Positions 14,765 to 62,850 of a stretch of 64,000 nucleotides of DNA are shown here, one piece after another. Source of the stretch: a virus; the IMG/VR virus record IMGVR_UViG_3300018080_000154, positions 18,954 through 82,953 of that record. One strand, written 5' to 3'. The notes beneath the pieces were generated by a model. It was not told the origin of the DNA and searched no databases. It worked only from the letters and a program-made list of their open reading frames with translations. The position numbers and the translations under genes were made by a program. Each line of letters opens with the position of its first letter. The first letter of the stretch is position 1.

Positions 14765-14777
14765 AATAATCCTCCTT

Positions 14778-34399: not shown

Positions 34400-34864
34400 C
34401 TACCCATGATTCGAGCTCCAACTAAATTGTTCAAACTCTGTATTAGATTGTTCGATTTGTTTTCGAATAAAATCAAACTCTTTACCAAGTTGATACGGTT
34501 CAGAGTAATAGACTTTCTTAATTCCACTGTTCAAAATAACTTTAGTACAATCTACGCAAGGTTGAGTCGTACAAAATAAAATAGAGCCTTCACATGAAAT
34601 TCCAAGACGTGCACATTGAATAATGCAATTCATCTCGGCATGAATACAATCAGCCAACTCAAGACGTTGACCGCTTTTAATTTTGAATTGTTCTCTTACA
34701 CATTTTTTTGGATGTGGTATCCCAGCAGGTACTCCATTGAAACCTGTCGCGATTATTCTTTTGTCCTTAACAAGAACCGCACCAACAGATCTTGAGCAAC
34801 ATGTACTCATTCTTGCACATTCTTGTGCAACGTTCATAAAAAATTCTAAATATCTTCTATTCAC
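34400..34864 (-). CDS. dCMP deaminase
   Basis: STC..VGAVLV..TGFNG, HAEMN, PCVDC; GAGG SD before GTG 34864. Confidence 0.92.
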   Translation of the reverse strand: MNRRYLEFFMNVAQECARMSTCCSRSVGAVLVKDKRIIATGFNGVPAGIPHPKKCVREQFKIKSGQRLELADCIHAEMNCIIQCARLGISCEGSILFCTTQPCVDCTKVILNSGIKKVYYSEPYQLGKEFDFIRKQIEQSNTEFEQFSWSSNHG

Positions 34865-34882
34865 TTCAACCTCTGTATTGTT

Positions 34883-34959
34883 TGACCGGGCGTGGAGTCG
34901 AACCACTTCACTGTGCCTCTCATTTCATCAAGGTCAGCCCCATCCAAGAGTCCCGGTCA
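34883..34959 (-). ncRNA. tRNA-like RNA / degenerate tRNA
   Basis: TGACCGGG/CCCGGTCA acceptor-like stem and GTGG-TTCGACT-CCAC T-arm; D and anticodon arms irregular. Confidence 0.6.
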
Positions 34960-43331: not shown

Positions 43332-43970
43332 CTATTTTATTTTGCTCAATACTTTATTAAGCTCTATTTCATCAAGAATTTTTTCATAATAGTAAGTGGC
43401 CTGCATATCTGCATTATGGGTGTACAGAACACGTGGATCATATTTTATTGCATTCGTCCACGCACGCCGACCTGCATCTGTACCGCACGACTCATCCCAC
43501 ATTCCCTCTGCCCATCTTATTGCTGCACACTCAGTTCGAGACAGATCAGGAACATATTTTCTTGTCAACGCCAATGAAACTTCAGCGTGAGTTAGAATGT
43601 CGTCACGATATTGACCTTCATAAAATTTCATTTGACACCATACGTTGTCAATTTTTCTATTTCTAAATCCAATTTTGTAAGTGCCGACTTTATTAAGATC
43701 ATGACCTATTGCAACAATCAACGTGTCGAATGTGTCTGTAGTGAATTGATCTTTAATTTTGCTAGATCTTATTTGATCTTCAAGTATTTCATTCACGTTT
43801 AACATGTGATCGACAAGACCACCAGGGTAATTGTTATGATATCGTTGAGATGCTGGATCTGTGTAGAAAGAAGTCGTCTCCAACCACCCAATCAAATCAT
43901 CGTACGACCTATTATTCTTTTTTGCATTGAGCTTTAAAAGACCTAGCAACTTCCCTTTTTGACTAGACAT
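43332..43970 (-). CDS. HD-domain phosphohydrolase
   Basis: PAS.RYH..YPGGLVDH, HDLNK, HNAD. Confidence 0.85.
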   Translation of the reverse strand: MSSQKGKLLGLLKLNAKKNNRSYDDLIGWLETTSFYTDPASQRYHNNYPGGLVDHMLNVNEILEDQIRSSKIKDQFTTDTFDTLIVAIGHDLNKVGTYKIGFRNRKIDNVWCQMKFYEGQYRDDILTHAEVSLALTRKYVPDLSRTECAAIRWAEGMWDESCGTDAGRRAWTNAIKYDPRVLYTHNADMQATYYYEKILDEIELNKVLSKIK

Positions 43971-46900
43971 TTTTTCTTCCCCTTCTTTTTAGTAGTTATA
44001 CAAATGCGTTTCTTAACTTTAAGAGCATCTGGTGATTGTTTCACTTTAAATGGACTTCTTTTGCCCAACAGAACATCCCTATTTTTCTTTGAAAGAAACC
44101 TGTCGTTATTTATTCTTTCTTCTACATATTCTCTTTTCTTTTTAGGGTCGTTTAACCACTTACGATACATTGTCATTTTCTTTTTTCTTTTTGCTATTGT
44201 TTCAAAAAGATACTGATCCCAATCATATTTAGGAAAAACGCATGCAAGTAGTCTAAGAAGAAGACCATAGATTTTCATATCCCAATAGTATTCTTTACTG
44301 TATGTACCATCAAAATCGTCTACGTGAATACCTTGAAGTCTAGGATTTTTTTCAGTCACAATATACGGGATGTGCATACCAACATAGAATTCTTTTTTTG
44401 ACTTTATCATATCTTCTGCAACTCTAATGTGCACAGCCTTTTGCTTATAGTTTTCTGGCCGACGAGATATTCTTGTCATGATGGTAATGTCTTTTAGATC
44501 AAACTTGCCGGTTTCAAAGATATTCATTTCTTTTCGTATGAAGTCTATGTAGTGCTTCAAATTATAATCTTCATACAGAATCTGTCTTATCAACTCTATT
44601 TGAAGACGTCGACCGTACTCAATGGCATCCCTTTTAATATAGTCAAGACCTTTACCGTAAACCTTATCAACCTTTTCTCCATCGATTTCAATTAGTCTAC
44701 CTGCGTATTGCTTTTTATGAAGTAACAAAATCTTTGAATAAGTTTTTTCATGTTCCAAAACAATATGTGAAATATCTATATTAAAATCTTTTTTGAGATG
44801 TTCTGCATAACCTTCATGAATTTTTTCAAGAACTTTTGACACATCAGGATTGTCATCCATTTTCACAAAGACAGAGTCAGTGTTGTGAAGTATTGTACCA
44901 CCACACGCATCAATAAACGTATGATCTTCTTCAACCTCTAAGTCATATACGTAACCATCTGTTTTTCTAGTGTGTTCTGATTTATATAAAACTCTTTTTT
45001 CTTTCCATCGTTTTATTGCAGCTAGTGATTTCGTATTTGCAGTGTCTTTATTTCTAAATTCAACCCAGACCACATTCTTTTCTTTTTTGTGTCTAAATCG
45101 ATAATAATAATCTTTGTCAAAATAAAAATTGAGTAGAAAAAAAGCCTGACTAACCATTTTCCTACTTTTGCCACCAATGCTTCCAGTATTTAAATCTTTA
45201 TCAAAAAGATCCTTTATGCCATCACCGTATTGATAACCTAAAAATATACCTTCAACAAAATCTCTATTCGACATGCACGAAAAATCTGGAAATTGTTTTT
45301 TGCTACTACCATATCCACATAACTCTTCAAGTAGTCTTGCATACAAAAATGTTTTCAATTTTATTCTTGCGCCATTATGGTACTCAAAATATTCAACAGC
45401 ATCTGAACCAAATACTTTACGTGCAAGACTAAAAAAATATTTTACCTCTTTTTTATTTTTACTACAGTACAGAATAGGTGAAGTAAATTTCAATCTATTG
45501 TGTTTGGATACTGAACCTTCTGCCATGTACCCACCAAGGACGATACCGAAATCTTTATCTAATTTAATAAAACGTTTTGCTTTAAATAATTTATCGGAAA
45601 AGCCTTTTGTCTTTGCCTTTATTCCTACTGTCAATGTTTTATCTCTATTTTTTTCACAAGAGTAATCCATTCTTGTAATAGTGTCTTTAATGTAACCATC
45701 AAAAAGAGATTTAATATCTATACGTTTCACAGTATTCGTAAATTTTAATTTTCTTTTATCTACAGTATCTATTTTTATATCACTAGAATAGATCATTTTA
45801 TCTTCATAATTATTGACAGTAGATAAAGATCCGTTCGAGTAAAAAGAATGATCAGTTGTTACACTAAAATCACTATCTGGACATGTGATATTGTAGAGTT
45901 TTTTACGAGTTTTGTGTCTTATTATTCTACGAACTTTTTGCCATTTACCCTTTCCAGACATTGTACGAATATTGTTATCATTTAGATAAATTATTTCTTT
46001 ACCTCTATCTCGTACAATACGATTTGGGAATGCTGCAAAAATATCACCTATCTTCTCTACTACGACATTATTAGAGTATTTCATCGGTATATAAGTATCA
46101 TACGGAACACTGTCACCGTACAGGGTCTCATAACCAAAATACTCTTTCATCAATTGTTTTGTAAGTTTTATCAGGTAATGGCCAGCCTTTGTAATGCTTT
46201 CAGCAACGTCACGGTCGTAGTATCTATTTCCTCTTTGTGCCATTGTTCCGTACAATGAGTTGGCCATTTCTTTAACGATGACCTGTGTGGCAAATGCTGC
46301 ATCATAATCCTTTGAACCGTGTGGACAACTTAACTGTATTTCTTTGTATTTCTTTCTTTCATCAAGTAGTTTCCTAATGATTGTTGGTAGCATTCCCTTT
46401 TTGTTTTTCTTTGTCCAAAACTCATTGACAGTATTTATCTCAGTGGTTTTCGGTTTTTTCTTCATGAACGTTTCAAGACTAATGTTCCACGTCATGATTA
46501 TTGTTGGATATAGACTTTTAAAGTCAAATACGTACACGTTGTCATGAATTCCTGCCACAGGGTCTAGTACGTAACCACCTACTACGTGTTCCTCTTCTTC
46601 TTTCTTGTCACCAAATGACGTCGACTTAAAGTGAACATCATTCTTATTCGAGTATCGTAAAATGTAGTTGTCAAGAAGTTCGCTTAAATAAAATTTACTC
46701 GGAAACGTACCGCACCACTGACATTCAAGAAGAATAAGTTCAAAGACTTTTAATTTCTGCTCAAGTTGTAGAAGAAGCACGCAGTCTTTGATGTTGTATT
46801 TTTTAAGTTTAGTAGGATTGTCTTGCCAGAGATTGTAAATACCTTCGTTGACTTCGATCTTAACATCACCTATGAAGTAATTACTTATAAAATTGAGACT

Positions 46901-47737
46901 CCAACTCCTGATGTTTTGATCATAATAGAACAATTTCTGAAAACGTTTCATGAAATCTATGTGTGCAACATCTTTCATTGTTGGAAAGTAACCACGATAT
47001 CGTTTCCATCTTTCACGTAGATACGGAACGTCAAAGTTTCCAGAGTTCCAACCAATGATTATGTCATATTTGTAGATGTATTCCCAAATGTCGTTGAGAA
47101 GTTCTTCTTCTGCTTTGTCAGTGTCTTCCTTTAAAAGAAAGAATTTTTTCTTACCATCTTGATCTACTGCTGCAAATGAAAGTATCCTGTCTCTACCTAC
47201 AACGATACCATCTTTTCTATCATCTGTTTCAATATCAAAAAAGATGTATCTAAAATCATTTGATACTTTGATTTCATGATCGATGCAGAATCGTTTGTAA
47301 TTTTTAAGATCACCCTCTAAAAGACTCACACCATGTTTATTGAGAAAATTTTTCAAACGAATACGATCATCTTCATTTCTATCTTCTGGATCTTTTTCGT
47401 TTTCCCATATCTCATTTATAGACTCATTGTCTACATATAGTTTTAGATACTGTCCACATATCTGAATTTTCTCGGTGTATTTCTTTAAAGACCCCCTGGG
47501 CAGTTTTTTCATATCACTCTTGCTGATAAAACAATACCATTTGAAGTCTGTTATCTTGACCTTTAATTTTTTCTTACAATACACACAACGATAGGTAAGA
47601 ACAATATCCCTACCATCGTCGTATGCATTAATAAATGAATCATTTGCCTCCCAGTATTTTTGCAGTTCCACACCAGGAGGTAAATGACCCATAGCCTCAG
47701 TCGGTATATAACCGATGATTTCATAGAGTTGTTTCAT
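43943..47737 (-). CDS. polB: family B DNA polymerase with intein
   Basis: Exonuclease FDIET, GWNS.NFD, YNIKD; DFKSLYPTII; K..ANSLYG; YGD[intein]TDS; KKQY. Confidence 0.96.
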   Translation of the reverse strand: MKQLYEIIGYIPTEAMGHLPPGVELQKYWEANDSFINAYDDGRDIVLTYRCVYCKKKLKVKITDFKWYCFISKSDMKKLPRGSLKKYTEKIQICGQYLKLYVDNESINEIWENEKDPEDRNEDDRIRLKNFLNKHGVSLLEGDLKNYKRFCIDHEIKVSNDFRYIFFDIETDDRKDGIVVGRDRILSFAAVDQDGKKKFFLLKEDTDKAEEELLNDIWEYIYKYDIIIGWNSGNFDVPYLRERWKRYRGYFPTMKDVAHIDFMKRFQKLFYYDQNIRSWSLNFISNYFIGDVKIEVNEGIYNLWQDNPTKLKKYNIKDCVLLLQLEQKLKVFELILLECQWCGTFPSKFYLSELLDNYILRYSNKNDVHFKSTSFGDKKEEEEHVVGGYVLDPVAGIHDNVYVFDFKSLYPTIIMTWNISLETFMKKKPKTTEINTVNEFWTKKNKKGMLPTIIRKLLDERKKYKEIQLSCPHGSKDYDAAFATQVIVKEMANSLYGTMAQRGNRYYDRDVAESITKAGHYLIKLTKQLMKEYFGYETLYGDSVPYDTYIPMKYSNNVVVEKIGDIFAAFPNRIVRDRGKEIIYLNDNNIRTMSGKGKWQKVRRIIRHKTRKKLYNITCPDSDFSVTTDHSFYSNGSLSTVNNYEDKMIYSSDIKIDTVDKRKLKFTNTVKRIDIKSLFDGYIKDTITRMDYSCEKNRDKTLTVGIKAKTKGFSDKLFKAKRFIKLDKDFGIVLGGYMAEGSVSKHNRLKFTSPILYCSKNKKEVKYFFSLARKVFGSDAVEYFEYHNGARIKLKTFLYARLLEELCGYGSSKKQFPDFSCMSNRDFVEGIFLGYQYGDGIKDLFDKDLNTGSIGGKSRKMVSQAFFLLNFYFDKDYYYRFRHKKEKNVVWVEFRNKDTANTKSLAAIKRWKEKRVLYKSEHTRKTDGYVYDLEVEEDHTFIDACGGTILHNTDSVFVKMDDNPDVSKVLEKIHEGYAEHLKKDFNIDISHIVLEHEKTYSKILLLHKKQYAGRLIEIDGEKVDKVYGKGLDYIKRDAIEYGRRLQIELIRQILYEDYNLKHYIDFIRKEMNIFETGKFDLKDITIMTRISRRPENYKQKAVHIRVAEDMIKSKKEFYVGMHIPYIVTEKNPRLQGIHVDDFDGTYSKEYYWDMKIYGLLLRLLACVFPKYDWDQYLFETIAKRKKKMTMYRKWLNDPKKKREYVEERINNDRFLSKKNRDVLLGKRSPFKVKQSPDALKVKKRICITTKKKGKKKCLVKKGSC
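44882..46111 (-). mobile_element. 410-aa intein with LAGLIDADG homing endonuclease in the PolB YGD/TDS motif
   Basis: SVPYDT start, VTTDHS, GGYMAEG and GYQYGDG, VYDLEV..HN|T. Confidence 0.95.
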
Positions 47738-48723
47738 TATTCTTCTTCAAAGAATTTTTTATCAATTGCATCGAGTTTTTCATACTCGTCATAAATCTTC
47801 CATTCATCAGGATCTGGTAATTTTACTCCACTTTCTTTATGAAGTTGAGCGTAATCACTACACGACCAGTTAAACGTTGCGTATGGTTGATCATCTGGCC
47901 ATCTACCACATCCTTTGAAAAGACAACCGAATGCCTCTGATAAAGTATAGTCTTGATGATAAACACATTTTTTAGCAAGATCACATCTTGGTCTAAGACA
48001 ACTTGCCAAAAGAGGTGAATACGTTTCAACCTGGTCACGAATAAGAATTGCAGTTTGAACCGTGTCAAACATCTCACAAGCCATGAGTCGTTGCATACAA
48101 TACGATCTCAGAGCCATGAAATTGCAACCATAGCGATAGTTATGTGTAACATTCATTGGCATTATGCAACGAGCAGTCTGAAACGAACCAGCACCGCGTT
48201 TCAAAATATCTTGATAAAGATCTTTGAATTGTTTCACAAACTCTTCGATGCGTGGTCTAAGTTCTGTATCATTTGCCAACTCGTTGGGTATTCTAAATCC
48301 GGCATCGAGTCGACTGTTATCTCGTACACCTTGACTTTGAAAAAATGCACCAACTCTTTGTCTAGCATGTTGATCAAATGCTGCACGTGTTGCACCACGA
48401 ACGGTGAAACTAAAACTTAGCGCCTCCAATGATTGAGGAAGAGTTTGACCGGTCAAAACTGCATTTACAATTGCAAATCTATGTTGAGGTTTGAGTTTTG
48501 GCCATTTGTTCTCAAATTTCTCATCACCCCAAGTAGAAGTCACATGTTCTACAATTGTCTTTGCATAGTTACCAGGATGATCAAACATCTCAACTGACAT
48601 ACCTTCGGCACCGACATAAAAATTTGTCTCCTTGTTTTCCATGTTCATTTCAGGCAAAGTGCCCATCTCTTTTCTGATTTCATTCTTTTCTTCAGCCCCA
48701 AGACCTTTGAACAAGTCTTTCAT
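47737..48723 (-). CDS. ThyX-family flavoprotein (atypical active site)
   Basis: LE..SFSF.V.GATRA..DQ.ARQR, QTARCIMP, NF.AL...R.C; signature deviates from RHR..S.R. Confidence 0.8.
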   Translation of the reverse strand: MKDLFKGLGAEEKNEIRKEMGTLPEMNMENKETNFYVGAEGMSVEMFDHPGNYAKTIVEHVTSTWGDEKFENKWPKLKPQHRFAIVNAVLTGQTLPQSLEALSFSFTVRGATRAAFDQHARQRVGAFFQSQGVRDNSRLDAGFRIPNELANDTELRPRIEEFVKQFKDLYQDILKRGAGSFQTARCIMPMNVTHNYRYGCNFMALRSYCMQRLMACEMFDTVQTAILIRDQVETYSPLLASCLRPRCDLAKKCVYHQDYTLSEAFGCLFKGCGRWPDDQPYATFNWSCSDYAQLHKESGVKLPDPDEWKIYDEYEKLDAIDKKFFEEE

Positions 48724-49268
48724 TTAGATTCCTCCATAATTATTCTCATTCTATCGAACACTTTCTTAACCTGCATTCTGTAGTTATTCATTTTACTCAT
48801 ACCGTAAATTTTCACATACGATGGATGCCAGATCTTGAAAACTTCATAACCATGATAACCTCTCAAAAAATTCCAAACGACATTGCCAAGAGATACAATT
48901 ATTTTTGGGTCAACTAAAATTACCTCGTTGTACAAAATTCTTCTATCACATTCAAGCATCATTTGAAGAGACAAAGAATTGTCAAACGTACTACACTTAA
49001 CAAGATTTGTGAAAAACAATGGCACGTTGTCGTAATTCATTTCATTTAGCATTTCAAGAAAAAATGAGTATCTTTCATTGTCCCATATCTTGTTACCTGG
49101 GTATCTACATTTACTGGGATTCATACCAACAAAAAGAACACCTCCAGGTTCTCCCCAACCTTCAAGTTTGTTCATACCTTTAGAGTCTTTTTTATTAGAA
49201 CAGATCAAACCTTCTGGACATCTTGCACATTTATGCATTTCATGATAGAGCGCATCAAGTTTTTTCAA
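48720..49268 (-). CDS. uracil-DNA glycosylase superfamily protein (family-4-like Fe-S cysteines)
   Basis: CARC, LFVGMNPS, FTNLVKC, EC..E..VDPKIIVSLG, HPSY. Confidence 0.82.
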   Translation of the reverse strand: MKKLDALYHEMHKCARCPEGLICSNKKDSKGMNKLEGWGEPGGVLFVGMNPSKCRYPGNKIWDNERYSFFLEMLNEMNYDNVPLFFTNLVKCSTFDNSLSLQMMLECDRRILYNEVILVDPKIIVSLGNVVWNFLRGYHGYEVFKIWHPSYVKIYGMSKMNNYRMQVKKVFDRMRIIMEESK

Positions 49269-50194
49269 AACAATTTTTCTCTTATCAAGATTTCATGTAG
49301 ATTTCTGACAACAATTACTCTTGGATCAACACCATCGACGACAGTGTACGGTGATATTAGATAAACACGATAACCTTGTTTTGAAACACTGTTTGCATAT
49401 CGTACATTGTCCTCAACCATAAACTTAAGTTTGGGAATATCTTTTACGATCTTCATATTTTTTCTTTCGTCAAACATGATTGCATCGTAAGCAATATTAT
49501 TGTCCTTAAGCCATTTTATAGTGTCAGGAAATAATCTGTTGTATTTCTTGTACGGCCTACTTGTGAGTACAACAATATTGTGACCAGAGTTTCTTAAATT
49601 GTGTGTGAATTCTGATGCACCTTCTTTTGGTTTTATTTTTAGTTTTTCACCACTTTGTCTGTATTCACTTTTAAGTTGATCGTACTTTAAAAGATCAACA
49701 TCAAGTTTCATCTGACTAAGAGAACAATATTCTGTACCAAGTTTTTTATTGACGTATTGTATCCACGGTTCAGGGTATTCACAAAGAACACCATCTAAAT
49801 CCAAGGCAACAACCTTTTGAGAAAACTCTGACTTTATCTTATGTTCTTGGAAATATCGTTGATTTACAACCTCGGTTTTTCTCCAGTACTCTTCTATGAA
49901 TTGTTCATACGATACACCAAGAAGTTGAAATGCACCCCATAGATACTTTTGACAATCAACAAGCTCTTCAATAGTGTTGGATACTATTTCTTCTTTGTCT
50001 TCAACCCGATGCATTTTAAATTTTCGAGTATTGAGAGCCTCGGTCGACTCTCTAATAAAACTCAAAATGAATTCCTTAAGATGGTCTGTAATTTGTGAAT
50101 GACTTAGATTGTCAAAATCTAACTCTTTGTCTTGAAAGAAATCTCTGTTGAATTTTAATTGATCCTCGTATGCTTCTTTACATTTGTCTTTCAT
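49265..50194 (-). CDS. dimeric dNTP pyrophosphatase (dUTPase/dCTPase-like) fused to HAD nucleotidase
   Basis: E..E...K.H, EELVD, K..VN.QR; DLDGVL, LTSRP, T..WL, VEDN. Confidence 0.82.
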   Translation of the reverse strand: MKDKCKEAYEDQLKFNRDFFQDKELDFDNLSHSQITDHLKEFILSFIRESTEALNTRKFKMHRVEDKEEIVSNTIEELVDCQKYLWGAFQLLGVSYEQFIEEYWRKTEVVNQRYFQEHKIKSEFSQKVVALDLDGVLCEYPEPWIQYVNKKLGTEYCSLSQMKLDVDLLKYDQLKSEYRQSGEKLKIKPKEGASEFTHNLRNSGHNIVVLTSRPYKKYNRLFPDTIKWLKDNNIAYDAIMFDERKNMKIVKDIPKLKFMVEDNVRYANSVSKQGYRVYLISPYTVVDGVDPRVIVVRNLHEILIREKLF

Positions 50195-51071
50195 GTTTGA
50201 CTATATCCTCAGTACGAATTGAATGGTTCCACCTTGAATACCTGCCAACGAATTCTACACCGTCAATCTCAGGTAGTACATCAATTGATTTTTTAATTTG
50301 ACTTCTTGGCAATTGTTGAGAAAACATTACAAACATATCTCTATCTACACAATGTTGTAACGCCTCTTCTTCACGCAGTCCTGTGAATTCCACAATATGC
50401 TGACCGTTCTCATACTGTGTAATTCTAGTAAAAGGTTGATTGATGAAATAGATATATGATTTTGTATTGTCGTAAAGAAAACAATTCCTCACAAGAACAA
50501 ATGTTTTATCAAGAGCACTAAAATCATATTCAAGATTTAGACCAGCAAGCTTATTGAAAACCGGTAACGGTAGCGTACTAACAAGATTTTCATAAACATA
50601 CTCATCATTTCTGGTGTACACAATTTTATTTTCAACATCTATTCTTTGCACGGTGTCTTCTATAATCCTTTCGTCTTCTGCAATTTCACGAGTTAGTCTT
50701 GAAATCACTGTATTCAAACCCACGTCGTAATACTCAAAAACATTTTTTGCATTACTCATTACACCAGATGTCATATTTTCAGACGATTCATGCCTAGATT
50801 TTTCAAAATACTTTTCTCTAAATTCGTCTGACGCCTTTGATGCAAAACGAAGACCATCTGAGTAACCAATGACTGCAAGTTTTTTATTCGTTATCATACT
50901 AAGATCGTTGACGAGAAAATCTGACATTTCTTTTGTTGCATGTAACATACGAGGACCCAACGGAAATGTACTTTTCATTTGACCGCCAACCTTATCTGTA
51001 ATGAGGTCGTATCCTTTACGATGATACGCTACAACAAGTCCTGCAATTCCACCCCCTAAAACAATATTCAT
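50178..51071 (-). CDS. FAD-dependent enzyme, UDP-galactopyranose mutase-like
   Basis: VLGGGIAGL, GG..GP..H, YENLVSTLPL, PFTRI, VGRYSRW. Confidence 0.7.
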   Translation of the reverse strand: MNIVLGGGIAGLVVAYHRKGYDLITDKVGGQMKSTFPLGPRMLHATKEMSDFLVNDLSMITNKKLAVIGYSDGLRFASKASDEFREKYFEKSRHESSENMTSGVMSNAKNVFEYYDVGLNTVISRLTREIAEDERIIEDTVQRIDVENKIVYTRNDEYVYENLVSTLPLPVFNKLAGLNLEYDFSALDKTFVLVRNCFLYDNTKSYIYFINQPFTRITQYENGQHIVEFTGLREEEALQHCVDRDMFVMFSQQLPRSQIKKSIDVLPEIDGVEFVGRYSRWNHSIRTEDIVKHERQM

Positions 51072-51080
51072 TTTTTTGTC

Positions 51081-51545
51081 CTATTCGTTCATTTCACTAA
51101 CACGTGAAATTATTTTTATTACATGTTCATGTACCTCGGCATCATCATCAAGTATCAAGAAATTTGGATGGTTTCTTAAAAAAGAGATGTACCCATTGTA
51201 CTCCTCATAAATTTCCTTTAGTTCTTCAAATTTGATGTGCCAATCACCTCTTGACTTGAACCTTCTTTCAATTACTTCCAAACTCGGTTGACGTATTACA
51301 AAAAGAGGATCATATCTTGAAATGAAATCATTCATATCGTCCAGTATTTTGTCATGCAAATCATCATGACGTTCTCGTACAGAATTATAGACAAGACTAC
51401 TTAAAAACATTCTATCGACAACAAGTTGTCTAAAATTTGTAGCCTTGTCGTATTCATGTCTAAGAGTTGTCTTACCGGCACAGTCACAACCCTCAAAAAC
51501 AATAATCCTATAATCCCTCTTTTTTATCCACGTTGGTGTATTCAT
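51081..51545 (-). CDS. dNMP (thymidylate-type) kinase
   Basis: FEGCDCAGKTT, VDR..LS..VY, RF..RGD. Confidence 0.85.
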   Translation of the reverse strand: MNTPTWIKKRDYRIIVFEGCDCAGKTTLRHEYDKATNFRQLVVDRMFLSSLVYNSVRERHDDLHDKILDDMNDFISRYDPLFVIRQPSLEVIERRFKSRGDWHIKFEELKEIYEEYNGYISFLRNHPNFLILDDDAEVHEHVIKIISRVSEMNE

Positions 51546-52044
51546 GAAGCGATCCTATTTGAATGAACATTTTCTTTGTACTGCTCTTAATTTTGAAATG
51601 ATTTTCTGTCAACTGATAAATCAAATGATTTATGATACCGAGGTCACATGACAATCTTGTGATGTCACTACTTCTAATGTTAACAACAGCCTGATGAGAG
51701 TAGTCTTCATCGAAAAGTAGAAGAATACTTTCCATGCACGGTACCATGTTTTCATTTTGATTGTAGTGATACTCTCTTGGAAATTGTATCAACAATCTTC
51801 TAGAAAATTTATCGCGTTCAAACTCTTTGCACAACGAAGGCACCTGCGGCAAAAACATATTGAAGTACGGTGTCAATTCTTCTTTATCAAAATCTTTGAA
51901 TTCTGATATATCTTGAGACTCCATCCAAAATGTTGCACCAACTTTCTCAACTATCTCCATGCCTCGGCGTACAACTTTTGTTGCGTTAATACTTGGATGT
52001 AAACATTGTCTACGTATTGATTGAATTGTATCTTTACTACTCAC
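51508..52044 (-). CDS. short thymidylate synthase homolog, dCMP-modifying type
   Basis: SRR, PC, RSSD...LSCD (Asp at the base-specificity position), GSLHEY as in T4 gp42-type enzymes. Confidence 0.75.
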   Translation of the reverse strand: MSSKDTIQSIRRQCLHPSINATKVVRRGMEIVEKVGATFWMESQDISEFKDFDKEELTPYFNMFLPQVPSLCKEFERDKFSRRLLIQFPREYHYNQNENMVPCMESILLLFDEDYSHQAVVNIRSSDITRLSCDLGIINHLIYQLTENHFKIKSSTKKMFIQIGSLHEYTNVDKKEGL

Positions 52045-53095
52045 AGGGTTTTCTCCTATTTGCTTTGTCTGAGATGTACCAGTACGGTTTGAAATCTATG
52101 TTCTTCATTATTGTCTTTGCAGTCATTTCAATACCCTGCTCAAATGTGTATTCCGGCTTCCATCCAGTCGACAGCAGTTTTGAATTGTCACCTAAATGGT
52201 TTTTGTGGTAATCAAGACGTTGAAGATATTTAATGTTATATCTACCGGGAAATTTATTCATCACGTAGTCAACATAATCTTGAAAACGTCTACCACTACC
52301 ATGTGCGATATTGAAATCCTCTCCCCAATAGTTATTGTCAACCAAATGCACAACCGCACTGGCAACGTCCTCGACTCTTATATAGTCTTTGAAATACTTA
52401 GGATGTAATCTTACTGGTAGTACTACATCTTTATCGTATTCCTTATTGTACAATCCGTTGTGCAAAATTCTAATTATTGCACTTGATGTATCATTTGGAA
52501 AATTACCAAAAGCAAATATCGGTCTAACGATAATAGTATTGGCCATTTCAAAAAGTTTTCTAACCTGTATCTCAGCATCAAGTTTATTGATACCATACAA
52601 TGTCTCTGGATCTATTTGTGCATTTTCATCAAATGAACTTTCATGGTATTTCTGAATGTCACCAGTAGAAAAACCAGATCCACCAAATATCGAAGTCGTA
52701 CCAAAAAATACAAGCCGTATGTCAAATTCTTTGCACACTTCAATTACGTTGAACGTTCCAAGAACATTGCTCAAAATAGAGTCCTTAGCCTTGACGTCAC
52801 AAATATCACTGCCGACATACGCTGCGTTGTGAACAATAAGGTCTGGTTTAAGCACCTCAACTGCCTTCTTAAATGACTCAAGATTTTCTATGTTGATTTC
52901 AGGTGTACGATGTTGAAATGATCTGTACAATTTTTTGTTTTCAAGAGAATACTCATTTTCAGTAATAAATTTTTCTCTTTCATGATATCCTGGCTTGTTC
53001 ACCACAACGTACGCACCATTTTCAAACATGTCGTGCATGCTTTCAGCAATGTAACCGCTTTCACCTGTTATGAATACTCTTCGTATCATTTTCAA
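52037..53095 (-). CDS. NAD-dependent NDP-sugar epimerase/dehydratase (extended SDR)
   Basis: ITGESGYIA, HNAA, NVLGT, YGINK, DYIRVEDVA, FNI. Confidence 0.9.
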   Translation of the reverse strand: MKMIRRVFITGESGYIAESMHDMFENGAYVVVNKPGYHEREKFITENEYSLENKKLYRSFQHRTPEINIENLESFKKAVEVLKPDLIVHNAAYVGSDICDVKAKDSILSNVLGTFNVIEVCKEFDIRLVFFGTTSIFGGSGFSTGDIQKYHESSFDENAQIDPETLYGINKLDAEIQVRKLFEMANTIIVRPIFAFGNFPNDTSSAIIRILHNGLYNKEYDKDVVLPVRLHPKYFKDYIRVEDVASAVVHLVDNNYWGEDFNIAHGSGRRFQDYVDYVMNKFPGRYNIKYLQRLDYHKNHLGDNSKLLSTGWKPEYTFEQGIEMTAKTIMKNIDFKPYWYISDKANRRKPCE

Positions 53096-54961: not shown

Positions 54962-55293
54962 CTATTTTTTAGACAGCATTACTGCATCATTTTCCGTAAG
55001 TTTTTCAACATCTTTAAGAACATTATCGAAATCCCTTTCGTAGTTTTTCCACACCCTGCTCAGCCATTTTGCTTTTGTCTCTTTGGGAAAAACATTAGTC
55101 CTAAGACCAATGTGTTTGAAAACAAGTTCAGGAGTCATAACACTGTTGCCATCCTTATCCATAAGGAATGAACCAAAAAGTCTCTCGTATATTTGTAGAC
55201 GTATTGCAAACTCCTTCCAATTTTCTTTTGTTATCTCTCCCATACCTATCGTCATCGTCAAAAGTATGAGACTCTCTGTTCGTTGTTTAAGAT
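54962..55293 (-). pseudogene. 3' part of a gene interrupted by the 55294-56750 insertion
   Basis: Joins in frame with 56751-56829 to give a 136-aa protein. Confidence 0.8.
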
Positions 55294-55560
55294 AGCATGA
55301 GTACAATACACATGACAATCACGTAAGTCTTTATGAGAAAAAATTATAGCATTCATTTCTGCATGAGCTGTCATATAATATTTATAAGGTCTTTCATGTG
55401 TCATCTTGTGTTCATCACAACCTGCGATAAATCCATTATATCCGAATGATACAGGACGATTATCATCTGTTGTAATAACACACCCTACTTTAGATGATGG
55501 ATCCTTAGATTTTAAAGAAACATCATATGCTATCTTCATGAAATAATCTTTCCAATTCAT
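55258..55560 (-). pseudogene. truncated second dCMP deaminase
   Basis: SKDPS.KVGC..GYNG..HAEMNA..VYCTHA, then cut just before the PCxxC zinc motif. Confidence 0.85.
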
Positions 55561-55568
55561 AATAACCC

Positions 55569-55763
55569 TTATGATATTCTATTCCAAGATTTTTTACTCT
55601 TTTGTATATTATTAACACGTTTATTATTAATTAATCTATAACCATGTAGTAAAGCTATAGCTACTGCAATTCTATAATCTATATTTATTAAAATTGCATA
55701 ACCTATCGTGAATAAAATTAACTCTAAAAATATTAATATGATTAATTTGATTTTAATATTCAT
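55569..55763 (-). CDS. small membrane protein
   Basis: Two hydrophobic segments; inside insertion. Confidence 0.55.
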   Translation of the reverse strand: MNIKIKLIILIFLELILFTIGYAILINIDYRIAVAIALLHGYRLINNKRVNNIQKSKKSWNRIS

Positions 55764-56623
55764 TTAAACTTCCTATTCCTTTCCATCCTACGTAGTGTAT
55801 CTTGAGGCCTCTCACCTTCTTCCATTTCATAACTACAACCTAAAACTCCACCTTTCCATGATCCTGATCTTTCTCCTACCTCATCACTAAATGCTATTTC
55901 AATAGATTGTTTATTCTTTACCATAAACCATGGCCATGAACACCATTCAAACCATTTTCTACGCCATTGCATTCTCTCCACAAATATCCAAGCCTTTACA
56001 TGTTGTACTATACCTGAATTTAATTTATATGAATAACTATAAACATCATTCCACCGACCATCAGGTGGTAAGTCGTTTTGAACTCCATTATTCCATCTAG
56101 CATGCCACTTGGTTGTGAATTGATTGCTGGTATCTATCCATATAGGACTCCATGATCCATCAGGCATCATTACCATTTCTTTATCATTCTGAAACTCCCA
56201 ATTAAAGAATGGTAGGAAGAATGACCAATCAAGTATATGAGATGACCCGTCGCTATTCCACTCATGGGCCTTCTTCCAGATTTTGATATTGATCATCCAA
56301 TCATGTATTGAAATTCCATTCAACCTAGCCTGATAATCTTTAGGTTTCAATACCCCATGTATAGAAAACCAAATAGAGATAAAAATTAACCCAATATGAA
56401 GTTGAATATCATCATAATTATCACCATCATATAGATTCAATTCCAATGCAATATTCTTATTATAAAAACATACTTCCCAACTAAACCTATTTAATTTACC
56501 TCGGAAGTGAGTCCACCACAAAGACCAATGTTTATTATTTGCCTTAGCTAAATTCTGAGTCCAAAAATACATATTATCCTCTGCTTTCTTCTGATGCTTA
56601 CTTAAGTTTATTTTAACCTTCAT
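55760..56623 (-). CDS. Trp-rich hypothetical phage protein
   Basis: 287 aa, GAGGAG SD, C-terminal FSDEVGERSGSWKGG. Confidence 0.75.
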   Translation of the reverse strand: MKVKINLSKHQKKAEDNMYFWTQNLAKANNKHWSLWWTHFRGKLNRFSWEVCFYNKNIALELNLYDGDNYDDIQLHIGLIFISIWFSIHGVLKPKDYQARLNGISIHDWMINIKIWKKAHEWNSDGSSHILDWSFFLPFFNWEFQNDKEMVMMPDGSWSPIWIDTSNQFTTKWHARWNNGVQNDLPPDGRWNDVYSYSYKLNSGIVQHVKAWIFVERMQWRRKWFEWCSWPWFMVKNKQSIEIAFSDEVGERSGSWKGGVLGCSYEMEEGERPQDTLRRMERNRKFK

Positions 56624-56665
56624 TATCTATTCTCTCCTCAATTCTATCATTACTAACCTCATAAG

Positions 56666-56750
56666 TGGGAGAGGAGGGATTTGAACCCCCACACTCTGTA
56701 CGAATACCGGATTTTAAGTCCGATGCGTCTACCAATTCCGCCACTCTCCC
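56666..56750 (-). tRNA. tRNA-Leu (UAA), CCA not encoded
   Basis: GGGAGAG/CTCTCCC acceptor, GCGGAATTGGTAGACGC D arm, TCGGA-CTTAAAA-TCCGG, long variable arm, GGGGG-TTCAAAT-CCCTC. Confidence 0.96.
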
Positions 56751-56829
56751 ATTGTTTACCATCGTCACGTGTTTCAAAACATACTTCATCTTTATTTTCG
56801 ATTCTTGTTAAATCCCAATTCAATGACAT
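56751..56829 (-). pseudogene. 5' part (26 codons) of the interrupted gene
   Basis: AAGGAGA SD, MSLNWDLTRIENKDEVCFETRDDGKQ ending at tRNA +1. Confidence 0.8.
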
Positions 56830-58460: not shown

Positions 58461-59573
58461 TTATTCGTCGTCAAGACCTAGATGCTTTTTGCAAACCATA
58501 ACCAATGTCTGCTGAGTTGTTTTTATTGCATCATCAAGTTTATGATTTTTCTTTCTATCGCCAAGACCTTCCAATGTTTTCTTTGCGTTCTTTATTTTCT
58601 TGTGACCTTCAACAGGATGAATTTCACCCTTATCCAATAGGTCTGCAATTTCTTGAACTGCGTCTGTCAACTCAATGATTTGTTCACCAAGTGGGTTTGC
58701 AAATTTGTTTACCAGTTTTCTTACGGGTTTTATTTGATCCGGCACAGACCAAAGAACATTGCAAAGAATATCGAGGTCGTCTTCCGTTACCTCCGAGTTG
58801 TCATTCAAATATGCATAGGCTTTCAAAACCCTAATACATTGTACCCATCTTCTATCAGATGTGAAAATTCCTTCCTTCTCAACCGATCGTCTAAGTTCAA
58901 CAAGAATGTCAAGTATTTTATCTGGTATTACCATTTCGTCTACTTCTTTTTGATAAGACTTCAGTTCTTCAAGTGTTATCGTTGGTATTTTCACCCGTGA
59001 TTTTGCATTTGCAATTTCATCAAACAATTCTCTTGCCATTGCATCGGACTGAATTCTTGGTACATCATAACGAAGAGCAAATCTATCATAAAGGGCTGCA
59101 AGTTCTTCTGCCTGGGGTATCTCATTTGATGCTGAGAATAAAACCTGAAGAGGTATCTTCGTTGGTGAACTACCGTTGTAGAAAATCCTTTCATTAATGA
59201 TTGGAAGAAGTGTGTTAAGAATAGCACTCGATCCTTTGAAAATTTCATCAAGAAATGCTATGTTTGCTTCTGGTAGTTTACCTTCAACAACTCTTTCGTA
59301 TTTGTCATGTTCCAGTGCTTTTAATGATAACGGTCCGAATACTTCTTCTGGTGTGGTAAATTTACTCATCAACCATGAAAAGTATTTACCACCTACCGCA
59401 CCACAAAGAGCATCACAGATTGCAGATTTTGCAGTACCAGGTGTTCCCAACATGAACAACATTTCTCTTGCCAATAATGCTGTCAACATGCCACGAATTA
59501 AATCTTGGCGTTCTTTGAATTTCTTACCCAATGCTTCTGCAATTGCTTTGATTTTGTTTTCTTTCTTAGACAT
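58461..59573 (-). CDS. MoxR/RavA-family AAA+ ATPase
   Basis: GTPGTAKS, FTTPEEVFGP, FLDEIFK, ASNE, ALYDRF, SDRRW. Confidence 0.92.
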   Translation of the reverse strand: MSKKENKIKAIAEALGKKFKERQDLIRGMLTALLAREMLFMLGTPGTAKSAICDALCGAVGGKYFSWLMSKFTTPEEVFGPLSLKALEHDKYERVVEGKLPEANIAFLDEIFKGSSAILNTLLPIINERIFYNGSSPTKIPLQVLFSASNEIPQAEELAALYDRFALRYDVPRIQSDAMARELFDEIANAKSRVKIPTITLEELKSYQKEVDEMVIPDKILDILVELRRSVEKEGIFTSDRRWVQCIRVLKAYAYLNDNSEVTEDDLDILCNVLWSVPDQIKPVRKLVNKFANPLGEQIIELTDAVQEIADLLDKGEIHPVEGHKKIKNAKKTLEGLGDRKKNHKLDDAIKTTQQTLVMVCKKHLGLDDE

Positions 59574-59586
59574 AATGTGTCTCCTT

Positions 59587-60951
59587 TTATTTTGTGTGAA
59601 GGCTTGAGTTTGCTTTAATAATGTCTTGAACGTAGTTAACTTCTCCGTTTGAGTTTATTGTTGCAGATGTATCTGCAATTTGTCCAAGTTGTTCCATGTT
59701 AACTGGTTCGGTCTCATCAATCATCTCAATGAGATGAAGTCGTACTTCTGTTTCTTTCTTCTCATTTTTAAGATGTTGAAGTTGATCATCCGTTAAATGA
59801 CAATGACCATCTGTGATGAATACAATATCTGCAGGTTTCAACGTCGGTTGCTCTTTTCTGATTTCAAATGCATCAACCAACGGTTCGTAGTATTCTGTCC
59901 CTCCTCCTGAAAAGAAAGTTATCATATCCATTTTATCCTGAATGGTCATTGTCTCGTCTTTTGTCCACGCCCGCTTCCATTTCACCTGTGTGTCAAAATA
60001 GATAACAGCAAACCCACGTTTCTGTTTTTCAGCCAAAATTGACAGTGCCAAAACAACTGACTTAGACCATTCTTCATTGGTTGGTGATCCACCGTACCGC
60101 ATCGATCCACTTACATCAACACAACAAATAATTGGACCATGACCTGCTCTTTCCTCTCCTTTCAAATTGTAGTTAAGAAGATTGTTTTCGTGCATATCTT
60201 TCATGAACAATAACGGTTGACGTTTGAATTTCAGTAACTCATTAGGTAGTGCACGAGAAATGTCGTTACCAATTGTGATGTCAACAATTTCATCATAACC
60301 ATGAGTAGGATTCTGATCCACTGCAGTTTGAACAATGTTTTTGAATCTACCAACAAGATCTGCAATCCGTTTGAAGATTTTATTATTCAAAAGAGTTTGA
60401 GCAAGTTTGAATTTCTCTTCATGTGGTAGACGTTCCAATTCACCTGACGATGCACCTGCAAAAATACCTAGAGCATCTTGTGCCTCTTCTGCCTTTTCTT
60501 GTGCCTTCTTCATTTTGTTTCTTGCAGCAATTCTAAAACGTTGGCGATTTTTTGATCTTTCATCCTCATTATCGCCATCCTCAGATTTTTCACGACGTAG
60601 TAACTCATTCAAAAATTGTGGTCCAATTTCTGCCGTTGCAATTGCTGAAGATACTGTGTCAACCAAAGTATGTGATCTAAGATCTTTGTACTCGTGTAGA
60701 CTCATCATCTCTTCAATCAATTCCCTTTGAGTACTTGGACCAGACTCGTTTACGTTTGGCTCCATTTTATAAAATGAATTGAAAATGTCGTTCGTAAAAT
60801 CAAGAGACATGTTTTCGTCATAGTCATCATCTTCTGTTTGTGTAAGTTCTCGTACCTTACTCGAGCTTGAAACTATTTCCTTGAAAGTAAGTTTATCGTA
60901 CGAGTCCTGATCGATGACATTATTTGGTGGTTTAGAAATTTTGAGTTTCAT
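59587..60951 (-). CDS. vWA-domain protein (ViaA/YehP-like)
   Basis: GNDISRALPNEL, MIDAS DVSGSM, GGGT, ADIVFITDG. Confidence 0.9.
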   Translation of the reverse strand: MKLKISKPPNNVIDQDSYDKLTFKEIVSSSSKVRELTQTEDDDYDENMSLDFTNDIFNSFYKMEPNVNESGPSTQRELIEEMMSLHEYKDLRSHTLVDTVSSAIATAEIGPQFLNELLRREKSEDGDNEDERSKNRQRFRIAARNKMKKAQEKAEEAQDALGIFAGASSGELERLPHEEKFKLAQTLLNNKIFKRIADLVGRFKNIVQTAVDQNPTHGYDEIVDITIGNDISRALPNELLKFKRQPLLFMKDMHENNLLNYNLKGEERAGHGPIICCVDVSGSMRYGGSPTNEEWSKSVVLALSILAEKQKRGFAVIYFDTQVKWKRAWTKDETMTIQDKMDMITFFSGGGTEYYEPLVDAFEIRKEQPTLKPADIVFITDGHCHLTDDQLQHLKNEKKETEVRLHLIEMIDETEPVNMEQLGQIADTSATINSNGEVNYVQDIIKANSSLHTK

Positions 60952-60962
60952 TTTTTTTCTCC

Positions 60963-62850
60963 TTATCGGTGAGATTCTAAGCCGTAACCACCTGCTGGAT
61001 CCATTTGACATTCTTGTTCTTGTTCTATCATTTGTACCCACGTTTTACAGAGTAAAGCGTTTCGTAAATCTCTGAAAAATTCTCCTTCAACTCTTGACCA
61101 AGTCCCATCATCAGAATCCAGATAACCTGAAGAAGCCTCAGTAACACCATTCGGTAAACACAATTTACATTCTATTTCTATACCCCACGTGCAATCATAG
61201 AAACTTACTTCAAGTAGATTCGGTTCGTACTCTTCATAACCAGTTTCTTCACATTGACCTATGATACTATCACCAGCATAAAAAGAACATTTGCCTCTTT
61301 CATAATGAGTTGGATCAGCCTTGTTGTACGTACCGCTTGATGTTGTACCATTCTCTCTTATTCTACGTATCAATAGTCTAATAAGATCTTTTTGTAGTAA
61401 TTCAAGTTTCATTTTATTCTCCTTACCATCCGTTTGGTGAATTTTCTTCGCTTGTATCTGCACTACAATCGTTGTAACCTTCTTCCGTTTCATATTTCTC
61501 TGCACACTCATCTGAACAGCATCTGCCCATGTATCCATTTGCTACAAATATTTGTTTTTCACAAATGATACATCTCTTTTTAGGCTGACCAAAATCAAAT
61601 CTGTCAATTCCATATCTTGAAACCTTACCAACATCATTTTTTATTCTAACAATACCTTTCATGGGAATGTTTTCAACCTCGTATGATTTTCCTACTGTGA
61701 TATTTGTTGCACCGTCGTTACACATACACACAATACCGTACATCACACCTTTACAATCAACACAAACGTGACCATCTCGAAAACAGTATCTACCTTCTCC
61801 GTTTTCAAATTTTTTGTTACATGCTAAACATTTCATTTTTAGTCCTCCTCACTGTCATCGATGTAATCCATAGATACACAAATTAAATTATCGTAATCAC
61901 CGCTCATTGCCTTCTTCTTGTATTCGTCTATTACAGCCTTAGAATTACCAGCACGTTGTAATCCTCTTATCACCGCACCCATAATTGCAAATGCATTGCC
62001 ATCGATACCAACCAAAGACATCTTTGCTTTTTTAAGTTCTTTCATTTTTTCTCCTTTGTTTTCTATATTCACGTAAACCTTCAACATCGTCTACAAATAA
62101 TAATTCATCTTCAGTCCACGTCTCTTCTCCACCGTATGGTCCCGGTCCTTCCAACGTGACGACTGAATAAAAAATATTCATATACACCTCGTTCTATTAT
62201 TCGTCTTTGTTTTCAAACCTAACAGCCTGGGAACGATTTTTTGTGTAGCCTATGGTATGGTCAAGACAATCATCGCAAATAGTTTCGTATTTATCGTCCT
62301 TAATCCTTGAGAATCTTATAACGTGTTCGCTACCACACTTCCTACAGGGTCTACTATCCTCGCCAGTTATTCCGTATTTTTTGTGTAGTTTGTCCAAAAG
62401 ATTTTTCATGTTAACTCCTAATTAAATATAGCGATCTTCATAATGGTTAGTAGAACCAAGTCTTTCAACTTTACGAAAAATTAAAGCCTTTTTCTTACCT
62501 CTCCTTTTTGTTCTAAATGTTATTTTTTGTTTTTCCCCAAACTCTTTATTCCTGACGACGTCGCCTACTTCAAATTTGAATTTCATTAGTATCTCCTTAA
62601 TAAAGTGGTGCGTGCCAATATTTTCCACATCTTTGCTTTTTTAAGTTCGCCCATTGTTTTCCTTTCATTTATGAATTGTAATTAAACCTATACGTTCATC
62701 GTTTACGTCAAATAACTCTTGTTGAGTTATTGAACCATCGTCATGAATTTGAATTGCAATCTCTTCAAGTATTCTTGCAATCTCAAATACTTCTTTCTCG
62801 TCCTTGCACGACTCCTTATCATGCGTGTCCAAAATAATTGAAACAATCAT
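60963..62850 (-). CDS. run of small early hypothetical ORFs (60963-61412, 61423-61836, 61839-62087, 62197-62409, 62422-62628, 62665-62850)
   Basis: SD motifs; several Zn-finger CxxC; LVGIDGNAFAIMG..MSGDYDNL conserved small phage protein. Confidence 0.6.

Follow-up and report, generated by a model that had tools for sequence, protein, structure and literature searches.

Phages T4 (gp42, gp1 and gp56), RB69 and DLP3 and the Rhizobium phage RL38JI replace cytosine by a pre-replicative route and glycosylate the replacement later. In RB69, DLP3 and RL38JI, experimentally proven 5-hydroxycytosine (5hoC) clusters contain a thymidylate synthase (TS) homologue, a Tmk-like kinase and a dCTPase (PMC13326640). 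A comparable layout is found in the 64,000-nucleotide stretch of phage DNA analysed here (the window; positions 18,954 to 82,953 of the IMG/VR virus record IMGVR_UViG_3300018080_000154), where a cassette of seven contiguous genes leads into a gene for a family B DNA polymerase (PolB). The cassette has in common with the T4-type and 5hoC systems a TS-fold enzyme with Asp at position 177, a Tmk-like kinase beside it, a dCTPase/dUTPase-type pyrophosphatase, a site near the replication genes, and phage enzymes of nucleoside diphosphate (NDP)-sugar metabolism, which include a UDP-galactopyranose mutase (UGM) in RL38JI. We judge the chances to be about even that this is one variant of a widespread phage cassette that adjusts the pool of pyrimidine deoxynucleotides and produces, ahead of replication, a pyrimidine dNTP modified at C5. 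A pre-replicative modification pathway for a pyrimidine, probably cytosine, is plausible, and a sugar side chain on the building block is possible.

The cassette departs from the T4-type and 5hoC systems in several respects. Its TS homologue, which we call the mini-TS, has 178 residues, lacks the folate/flavin-site loop and the C-terminal tail, and has Asp169 rather than Asn. No GT-B DNA glycosyltransferases and no arabinose-5-phosphate pathway were found in the incomplete record, and a paralogue of ThyX belongs to the cassette set. The UGM of RL38JI (gp84) reaches a Z score of about 50, whereas the UGM-related flavoprotein of the cassette reaches 24, is far more divergent, and is fused to a pyrophosphatase in relatives. 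A sequence-only reading of this locus had likened it to the arabinosyl-cytosine systems; that likeness extends to the TS homologue, the Tmk-like kinase and the dCTPase-type enzyme and fails for D169N, the arabinose-supply genes and the GT-B transferases, none of which is seen here.

A second comparison is with the hydroxymethyluracil (hmU) and deoxyuridine (dU) phages SPO1, PhiW-14 and PBS2, which exclude thymine by means of a dTTPase/dUTPase and a dTMP nucleotidase. There, and likewise in the cassette, a pyrophosphatase together with a 5'-nucleotidase would fully clear the canonical pyrimidine dNTP. The cassette differs in that the two activities are predicted to reside in one fused protein and in that it has no dUMP hydroxymethylase of the classical kind.

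The seven open reading frames (ORFs) occupy the minus strand from 53095 down to 47737. Neighbours overlap by 1-38 nt or are separated by a gap of 9 nt, and the last of the seven, the ThyX-like gene, shares 1 nt with the start of PolB (1264 aa, family B, with an intein). This run of genes had been described in the sequence-only reading, and all of its ORFs are present at their coordinates; its family calls, from the short-chain dehydrogenase/reductase (SDR) to the atypical ThyX, are borne out by Pfam, PHROGs, profile and structure searches. In window coordinates and in gene order, the features are as follows.

52037..53095, minus strand: extended SDR of the NDP-sugar epimerase/reductase type, 352 aa (Pfam, PHROGs)
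51508..52044, minus strand: mini-TS, thymidylate-synthase fold, 178 aa (family profile, ESM Atlas)
51081..51545, minus strand: short Tmk-like dNMP kinase, 154 aa (NCBIfam, PHROGs)
50178..51071, minus strand: FAD flavoprotein, distant UGM relative, 297 aa (profile, AF2 model, structure match)
49265..50194, minus strand: fusion of an all-alpha dUTPase/dCTPase-type NTP pyrophosphatase (about 49835-50194) and a HAD 5'(3')-deoxyribonucleotidase-like domain (about 49265-49834)
48720..49268, minus strand: protein of the uracil-DNA glycosylase (UDG) superfamily, 182 aa (Pfam UDG)
47737..48723, minus strand: long ThyX paralogue with a four-Cys C-terminal extension, 328 aa (Pfam Thy1)
43943..47737, minus strand: family B DNA polymerase with an intein (Pfam DNA_pol_B)

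These genes travel together. When IMG/VR is searched with a profile of the flavoprotein family, 43 loci emerge, 37 of them non-redundant, whose ORFs were called, clustered and matched to family models; all counts out of 37 refer to these non-redundant loci found through the flavoprotein. A long ThyX-like gene is present in 30 of the 37, a dUTPase-like domain near the flavoprotein in 25 (fused to the flavoprotein in 8 and to the HAD domain in 16), a Tmk-like kinase in 24, the mini-TS in 23, the UDG domain in 18 (in 5 as a polymerase-sized fusion) and the SDR in 13, 11 of these with the mini-TS. In most of the 25 loci that have it, the pyrophosphatase adjoins the flavoprotein. All seven families occur jointly in L004, L011 and L035. 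Most related loci have a DNA polymerase gene after the cassette, and in nine (9/37) a dCMP or dCTP deaminase lies inside it. A reciprocal locus search with a smaller mini-TS alignment returns two contigs, both already in the set. The recurrence of this gene set, in synteny, across dozens of viral contigs that are unrelated puts the clustering far beyond what chance would give. The idea of a conserved nucleotide-metabolism cassette tied to the polymerase is upheld by this synteny, and the SDR and UGM homologues keep company with the TS homologue, the kinase and the polymerase and not with surface-glycan genes.

Other enzymes enter the core gene set in individual loci. These include a class-III aminotransferase (L037:13203-14399; 4.7e-67), an aldo-keto reductase (2.6e-27) with a radical-SAM enzyme (L007:12339-13376 and 13808-14941), and an S-adenosylmethionine (SAM) methyltransferase (L011:12019-12804). 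By its gene content the cassette appears to be a conserved core with interchangeable tailoring steps, which is the pattern of a diversifying biosynthetic cluster.

The mini-TS of the window by itself has no Pfam match and its single-sequence PDB search is empty; single-sequence scans of viral contigs with it or with the flavoprotein also find nothing, and family profiles are needed. An exhaustive HMMER search places it in a small family of proteins of 150-190 aa with 15 representatives. The best PDB match of a 14-member profile is T4 dCMP hydroxymethylase (dCH; 1b49, 3e-6), followed by dozens of thymidylate synthases, and the ESM Atlas indicates a TS fold (TM 0.77). Against PF00303 (cut-off 24.3 bits), which the window protein does not match, relatives reach 27.8 bits in L011 and 24.8 bits in L016. 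In an alignment of 38 members, the catalytic Cys146 and Arg166 are invariant (38/38), and Ser167, His207 and the first Arg of the phosphate-binding pair (Arg126'/127') are each kept in 37.

Two positions in this alignment bear on the substrate. The equivalent of N177 is Asp in all 38 members and aligns with Asp179 of T4 dCH; Asp at 177 is a mark of TS homologues that use dCMP, and Asn at 169 (D169N) is a mark of the flavin-dependent 5-hydroxy-dCMP (5hodCMP) synthases of the RB69 gp48 type (PMC13326640). The D169 equivalent is Asp in 24 members, Asn in 7, Glu in 6 and His in 1, and the window protein has Asp (RSSD). The Asp at the 177 equivalent and the retained Asp169 make the window mini-TS a cytosine-type protein that is not of the 5hoC type, which agrees with the pyrimidine, probably cytosine, proposed in the sequence-only reading. 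A role as 5hodCMP synthase was rejected on account of Asp169.

The donor side of the mini-TS appears reduced. In classical TS enzymes, a loop that matches residues 67-107 of T4 dCH and the C-terminal tail line the folate site. The mini-TS lacks about 40 residues matching this loop, and its aligned region stops about 8 residues past the His-x-Tyr motif, with no C-terminal tail. The protein, with 178 aa compared with 246-264 aa, lacks the folate-site elements (the Trp80/Trp83/Tyr94 region and the tail). In four non-redundant loci (L016, L022, L024 and L028), a HhH-GPD DNA-glycosylase-type domain is fused N-terminally to the mini-TS; the fusion at L016:12111-12968 matches both Pfam families (2.4e-10, and 1.5e-5 for PF00303). 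These fusions give hints that some members of the family work on DNA.

The adjacent kinase matches the TIGR00041 dTMP kinase model (2.3e-7) and phrog_761 (1.8e-9) and has the P-loop EGxDxxGKTT; its matches to Pfam Thymidylate_kin and dNK are weak. In L019, kinase and mini-TS form one fused protein, which fits with a mini-TS that acts on a dNMP. The pyrophosphatase-HAD protein matches phrog_173 and phrog_12184 pyrophosphohydrolases in its N-terminal half (residues 2-113) and NT5C in its HAD half (3.8e-8, residues 127-247), where a DxDGV motif is seen. A profile of the N-terminal domain finds dimeric dUTPases (L. major 2cje, 3.6e-6), and E49, E76, E77 and D80 are invariant in 11 sequences; this match and the four acidic residues place it in the dUTPase/dCTPase branch of the all-alpha pyrophosphatases. 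PolB matches PF00136 (1.7e-49), has an RNase_H_2 exonuclease domain, and is interrupted between polymerase motifs by an intein at residues 562-952 (Pfam Intein_splicing 6.7e-8).

The long ThyX paralogue matches Pfam Thy1 (5e-12; 46.4 bits against a cut-off of 24.8), and its family profile finds T. maritima ThyX (4.5e-14); a single-sequence PDB search with the protein gives nothing. It has in common with canonical ThyX the Thy1 fold and the nucleotide-binding arginines (equivalents of Arg78, Arg80, Arg90, Arg147 and Arg174). However, where canonical ThyX has RHR..S....S.RY (RHRxxSxxxxSxRY) it reads RQRVGAFFQSQGVRD, so that the His of RHR and the Ser and Tyr of the motif are lost, and the equivalents of His53, His79, Ser88, Tyr91 and His178 are all replaced. 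It also adds about 90 C-terminal residues with four cysteines, Cys247, Cys253, Cys272 and Cys288, which recur in 14-18 of the 22 family members. This four-Cys extension (residues 240-290 region) suggests a zinc or iron-sulfur site that has no counterpart in canonical ThyX. In structures of ThyX-folate complexes, His53 stacks on the folate pterin. Because the mini-TS has lost parts of the folate site and the ThyX-like protein has lost His53, both proteins seem to have kept their nucleotide sites and remodelled the sites for the one-carbon donor.

The reading that we favour assembles these components into one pathway. The pyrophosphatase would return the canonical pyrimidine dNTP or dNDP to the monophosphate, which the fused HAD domain could remove entirely. 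The conserved Cys of the mini-TS would attack C6 of dCMP, and the enzyme would put a group on C5; the Tmk-like kinase would phosphorylate the product, a host kinase would complete the triphosphate, and PolB from the same operon would incorporate the new nucleotide. The flavoprotein and the four-Cys ThyX paralogue form the constant core and would probably use flavin chemistry to provide the C5 substituent or to transfer it, and the SDR would be one of several interchangeable enzymes for tailoring or donor supply. The gene identities, conserved catalytic residues, synteny and fusions are observed here; each of these chemical steps, the identity of the substituent and any modification of the virion DNA are inferred.

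This reading draws support from the tight operon that runs into PolB and its conservation and fusions in the 37 loci, from the nucleotide-binding and catalytic residues that the mini-TS keeps together with the dCMP-type Asp, and from a layout of TS homologue, Tmk-like kinase and dCTPase that is the layout of the proven 5hoC pathways. The coexistence of the long ThyX-like protein with a canonical ThyX in some loci, the variable tailoring genes within the cassette, and the homology of the flavoprotein to NDP-sugar mutases point in the same direction.

Several considerations weigh on the other side. The mini-TS could be a binding or regulatory protein and not an enzyme, because much of the folate-site architecture is gone. 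The ThyX-like protein could simply make dTMP here, because the record holds no other thymidylate synthase. The family matches of the cassette proteins all fall far under equivalog thresholds. PB1-like phages have remote homologues of the flavoprotein and the ThyX-like protein, and their known thymidine mark is confined to TG sites and poorly explained by a pathway at the level of the nucleotide pool. Listed with these points is the normal assembly of the phage DNA from short-read metagenomes, which speaks neither for nor against modification.

Ordinary nucleotide supply and sanitation is the alternative that survives best, and we regard it as possible though improbable. Under this explanation, dUMP from the dCMP deaminase and the dUTPase-like domain would go to a divergent but working ThyX for dTMP synthesis, the Tmk-like kinase would make dTDP, the UDG would remove uracil, and the flavoprotein would be a redox helper of ThyX, with the mini-TS and the SDR as passengers. 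It would account for the likeness of the pyrophosphatase to dimeric dUTPases and of the kinase to Tmk, and for a ThyX-like protein that keeps the equivalents of the dUMP-binding arginines and is the sole Thy1/ThyA-type match in the record, which contains neither a ThyA nor a second Thy1 match. In L014, L016, L021 and L025, however, a short ThyX with the normal motif lies beside the long paralogue, and since canonical ThyX coexists with it in at least these four non-redundant loci, the long protein is not simply the phage thymidylate synthase there. Its replaced active-site equivalents and added Cys extension are likewise difficult for the supply explanation, as are the strictly conserved cytosine-type Asp and catalytic Cys of the mini-TS and the variable tailoring enzymes, which are unexpected for housekeeping dTMP synthesis. 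The UGM-related flavoprotein is the most constant component and is fused to the pyrophosphatase, yet it has no known role in dTMP synthesis.

The flavoprotein has no family in Pfam, PHROGs or NCBIfam, its single-sequence PDB search is empty, and its family is phage-only in the ESM Atlas. An AlphaFold2 (AF2) model from 18 homologues has a pLDDT of 92.6. Foldseek alone does not separate UGM from amine oxidases, renalase and protoporphyrinogen oxidase as its closest relative. A VIA-align structural search places T. cruzi UGM first (Z 23.8, 292/297 residues aligned), with protoporphyrinogen oxidases at Z 21, and the top 14 PDB matches of an 18-member family profile are all UGMs (A. fumigatus UGM 4e-8). 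Tyr208 and Arg216, which do not vary within the family, line up with Tyr317 and Arg327 of the A. fumigatus enzyme, and hhalign pairs the flavoprotein with a GLF-domain protein at 97% probability, with a common C-terminal GR..W motif (GRYxxW). The FAD-binding GxGxxG motif is present as GGGIAG, and the model has three short helices at the location of the five-helix domain of UGM. Pfam GLF (PF03275) has no match anywhere in the record at E values up to 10, nor by hmmscan of the flavoprotein.

On the evidence of profiles and modelled structure, the flavoprotein is best described as a genuine distant relative of UGM with a reduced helical domain. The likeness to the GLF family consists of the FAD Rossmann motif, the YxYF..PFxR motif, the C-terminal GR..W motif and the best structural match. 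In contrast, UGMs have 365-510 aa compared with 297 aa here, and they occur among glycan-synthesis genes, whereas the flavoprotein is found in phages only, in a context of nucleotide metabolism and, in 8 loci, fused to a dUTPase-like domain. The earlier UGM-like call is therefore sound as a statement of homology (profile, structure, retained Tyr and Arg) and does not extend to an ordinary UGM, since the protein is much smaller, has a reduced helical domain and lies below the reach of Pfam GLF.

The SDR matches Pfam Epimerase (1.3e-23, residues 7-264), RmlD_sub_bind (2.3e-18), GDP_Man_Dehyd over residues 8-325, and the phrog_540 nucleotide-sugar epimerase family (3e-36). It has the TGxxGxxA motif as TGESGYIA and the YxxxK motif as YGINK, and its coverage of the substrate domain fits an extended SDR. 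In the PDB, its closest relatives (1e-12 or weaker) are epimerases, reductases and dehydratases that act on NDP-sugars, and all of its NCBIfam matches are far under equivalog cut-offs (TIGR01181, 65 bits compared with 365). A 4,6-dehydratase was rejected because the Asp-Glu pair is missing after the catalytic Thr/Ser (GTTSIFGG).

A recognisable glycosyltransferase (GT) had not been seen in the sequence-only reading, and none emerges here: the Pfam families GT1, GT2 and GT1_4 have no match in a six-frame search that covered all 82,953 bp of the record (about 74% complete), and the unknown ORFs that were scanned contain no GT, although divergent phage GTs can escape Pfam. An upstream ORF of 288 aa was considered as a hidden glycosyltransferase and rejected, as it matches no family in Pfam, PHROGs or NCBIfam. 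Among five related genomes that bear the cassette, four have GT2-family matches, one of them 2-3 genes downstream of the polymerase. Two GT2-like ORFs are located as follows.

G003:C1:26521-26673: GT2-like ORF in the genome of L009
G004:C1:44673-44792: GT2-like ORF in the genome of L035

In the scheme of the sequence-only reading, an SDR and a UGM-like enzyme would together make an NDP-furanose that is attached to TS-activated dCMP at the monophosphate level, then phosphorylated and polymerised without any GT. We consider this unlikely. The UGM homology of the flavoprotein with its equivalents of Arg327 and Tyr317, the NDP-sugar-type SDR and a record with no GT match are in keeping with it, and the SDR is enriched with the mini-TS, which is present in 11 of the 13 SDR loci and in 12 of the 24 loci without an SDR. 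A phage UGM is also known to supply UDP-galactofuranose for cytosine glycosylation in RL38JI (PMC13326640). However, the two enzymes that the sequence-only reading had combined as a sugar-supply pair are not a fixed pair: two of every three cassettes lack the SDR (present in 13/37), and the constant partners of the flavoprotein are the pyrophosphatase and the long ThyX-like protein. The reduced helical domain and sub-GLF similarity of the flavoprotein, the GT2 genes of four of the five related genomes and the incompleteness of this record count against it as well. Finally, proven phage DNA glycosylations all use GT-fold enzymes that act on DNA, and a TS-fold enzyme that accepts a sugar would be without precedent.

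The flavoprotein, a histidine-less ThyX and a HAD-MazG protein also form a core in PB1-like Pseudomonas phages (PB1 gp68, gp61, gp59 and gp51). In PB1, the family model of the flavoprotein finds gp68 (1.2e-6) and that of the long ThyX-like protein finds gp61 (2.2e-31); both genes lie beside the polymerase, which is of another type than the PolB of the cassette. PB1 has no mini-TS by the family model, and no SDR is annotated in its replication module. The PB1-related phages F8 and 14-1 have sugar-like derivatives of thymidine (362 and 390 Da) at TG sites, which affect about a quarter of the thymidines. This limitation to TG sites and to a quarter of thymidines points to a post-replicative step, so that the connection between the cassette and the PB1-like mark is a lead only.

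A more specific chemistry, a flavin-mediated C-alkylation of the pyrimidine nucleotide that is independent of GTs, may be envisaged for the cassette, but we rate it as decidedly unlikely. N5 of the reduced flavin would displace NDP from an NDP-sugar, as in UGM, to form a flavin-sugar iminium, and the fused or adjacent dUTPase/dUDPase-like domain would destroy the freed NDP. The iminium carbon would then be captured by a C5 carbanion of dCMP (on the mini-TS) or of dUMP (on the ThyX paralogue), a capture that would parallel that of the methylene-iminium in normal thymidylate synthesis. Reduction or ring closure would yield a C-linked polyol or a C-glycosyl pyrimidine dNMP, and the SDR, aldo-keto reductase, radical-SAM, aminotransferase and methyltransferase modules would tailor the side chain. 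By our own arithmetic, the F8 and 14-1 masses of 362 and 390 equal deoxyuridine with a C-linked tetrahydroxypentyl and a C-linked hexosyl group; they would fit this chemistry, the linkage itself being unpublished. Phage SP-15 has a dihydroxypentyl-uracil base and two Thy1 proteins, and under the C-alkylation scheme its base would be a deoxygenated version of the C-linked polyol.

The UDG-fold protein matches PF03167 (5.9e-10), and its NCBIfam matches to family-4 UDG are under the cut-off. Five related loci carry this domain as part of larger, polymerase-sized proteins (1116-1407 aa), from which we take the free UDG of the window to be probably a replisome accessory. It does not look like a tool for self/non-self discrimination. 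The five fusions are listed here.

L013:13507-17730: UDG domain in a polymerase-sized protein
L014:11960-15310: UDG domain in a polymerase-sized protein
L019:12043-15885: UDG domain in a polymerase-sized protein
L035:13831-17565: UDG domain in a polymerase-sized protein
L036:6252-10046: UDG domain in a polymerase-sized protein

A further alternative, post-replicative modification in which TS-fold and UDG-fold proteins flip bases for a Cys attack at C6 within DNA and the nucleotide enzymes adjust pools only, has poor prospects: it can point to the HhH-GPD fusions of the mini-TS, the DNA-binding and polymerase-fused UDG fold, the sequence-specific (TG) thymidine marks of PB1-like phages and the aGPT-Pplases, which are an established case of post-replicative C5 chemistry through a C6 thiolate, but the mini-TS keeps the Arg pair and the phosphate-binding Arg166/Ser167 that characterise TS enzymes acting on mononucleotides, forms one protein with a dNMP kinase in L019, and has no DNA-binding domain in the window.

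The record is a single piece with the gene content of a phage, including a large terminase, a portal, a sheath-like protein and a baseplate wedge. Its replication and recombination module also encodes RecA, SbcCD-like proteins, RuvC, a 5'-3' exonuclease, an SSB-like protein and a dCMP deaminase, which is likely part of the same pyrimidine economy as the cassette. The ORF directly after PolB may be a further nucleotide-pool enzyme of the same operon. A second, truncated dCMP deaminase lies beside a homologue of the CBASS inhibitor Acb3 and the only tRNA gene, and this Acb3/tRNA region looks like an insertion into the deaminase region. These neighbouring features are given below.

34400..34906, minus strand: dCMP deaminase, 168 aa, elsewhere in the replication module (Pfam dCMP_cyt_deam_1, 3.2e-24)
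43332-43970: 212-aa ORF right after PolB, phrog_28876 'metal-dependent phosphohydrolase' (3.6e-24), no Pfam family
55258-56829: region of the truncated dCMP deaminase (100 aa, Pfam 1.3e-14) and the Acb3 homologue (55760-56623, Pfam 1e-39)
56665-56750: tRNA-Leu-UAA, adjoining the truncated deaminase and Acb3
58461-61041: MoxR-type AAA ATPase (bpMoxR, 7.8e-56) and VWA-domain protein (4.9e-11), upstream of transcription and nucleotide genes

The phage DNA is present in sediment and seawater metagenomes from several studies, and no RNA run is listed among the sequencing runs that contain it. Among cultured phages, blastn finds no match for the cluster, and tblastn finds none for the flavoprotein, the mini-TS or two distant flavoprotein relatives; the ThyX-like protein gives weak ThyX matches only. 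No cultured phage with the seven-gene form was found in these searches, and literature searches located no paper that characterises the flavoprotein/ThyX-like module.

If the cassette serves dTMP supply only, the lost signature residues in both types of TS and the role of the UGM-like flavoprotein would still need explaining. If instead it makes a modified pyrimidine dNTP, as we favour, it would be a new enzymatic route, and a widespread one, by which phages hypermodify their DNA, and in which a minimal TS fold, a repurposed ThyX and a UGM-like flavoprotein act in a role without precedent. The interchangeable tailoring modules would then imply a family of different bases, and the cassette would provide candidate genes for orphan modifications, namely the sugar-like thymidines that PB1-like therapy phages carry and, possibly, the base of SP-15. 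Such a route would bear on the resistance of phages to restriction and CRISPR, and it would offer new enzymes for making modified DNA.

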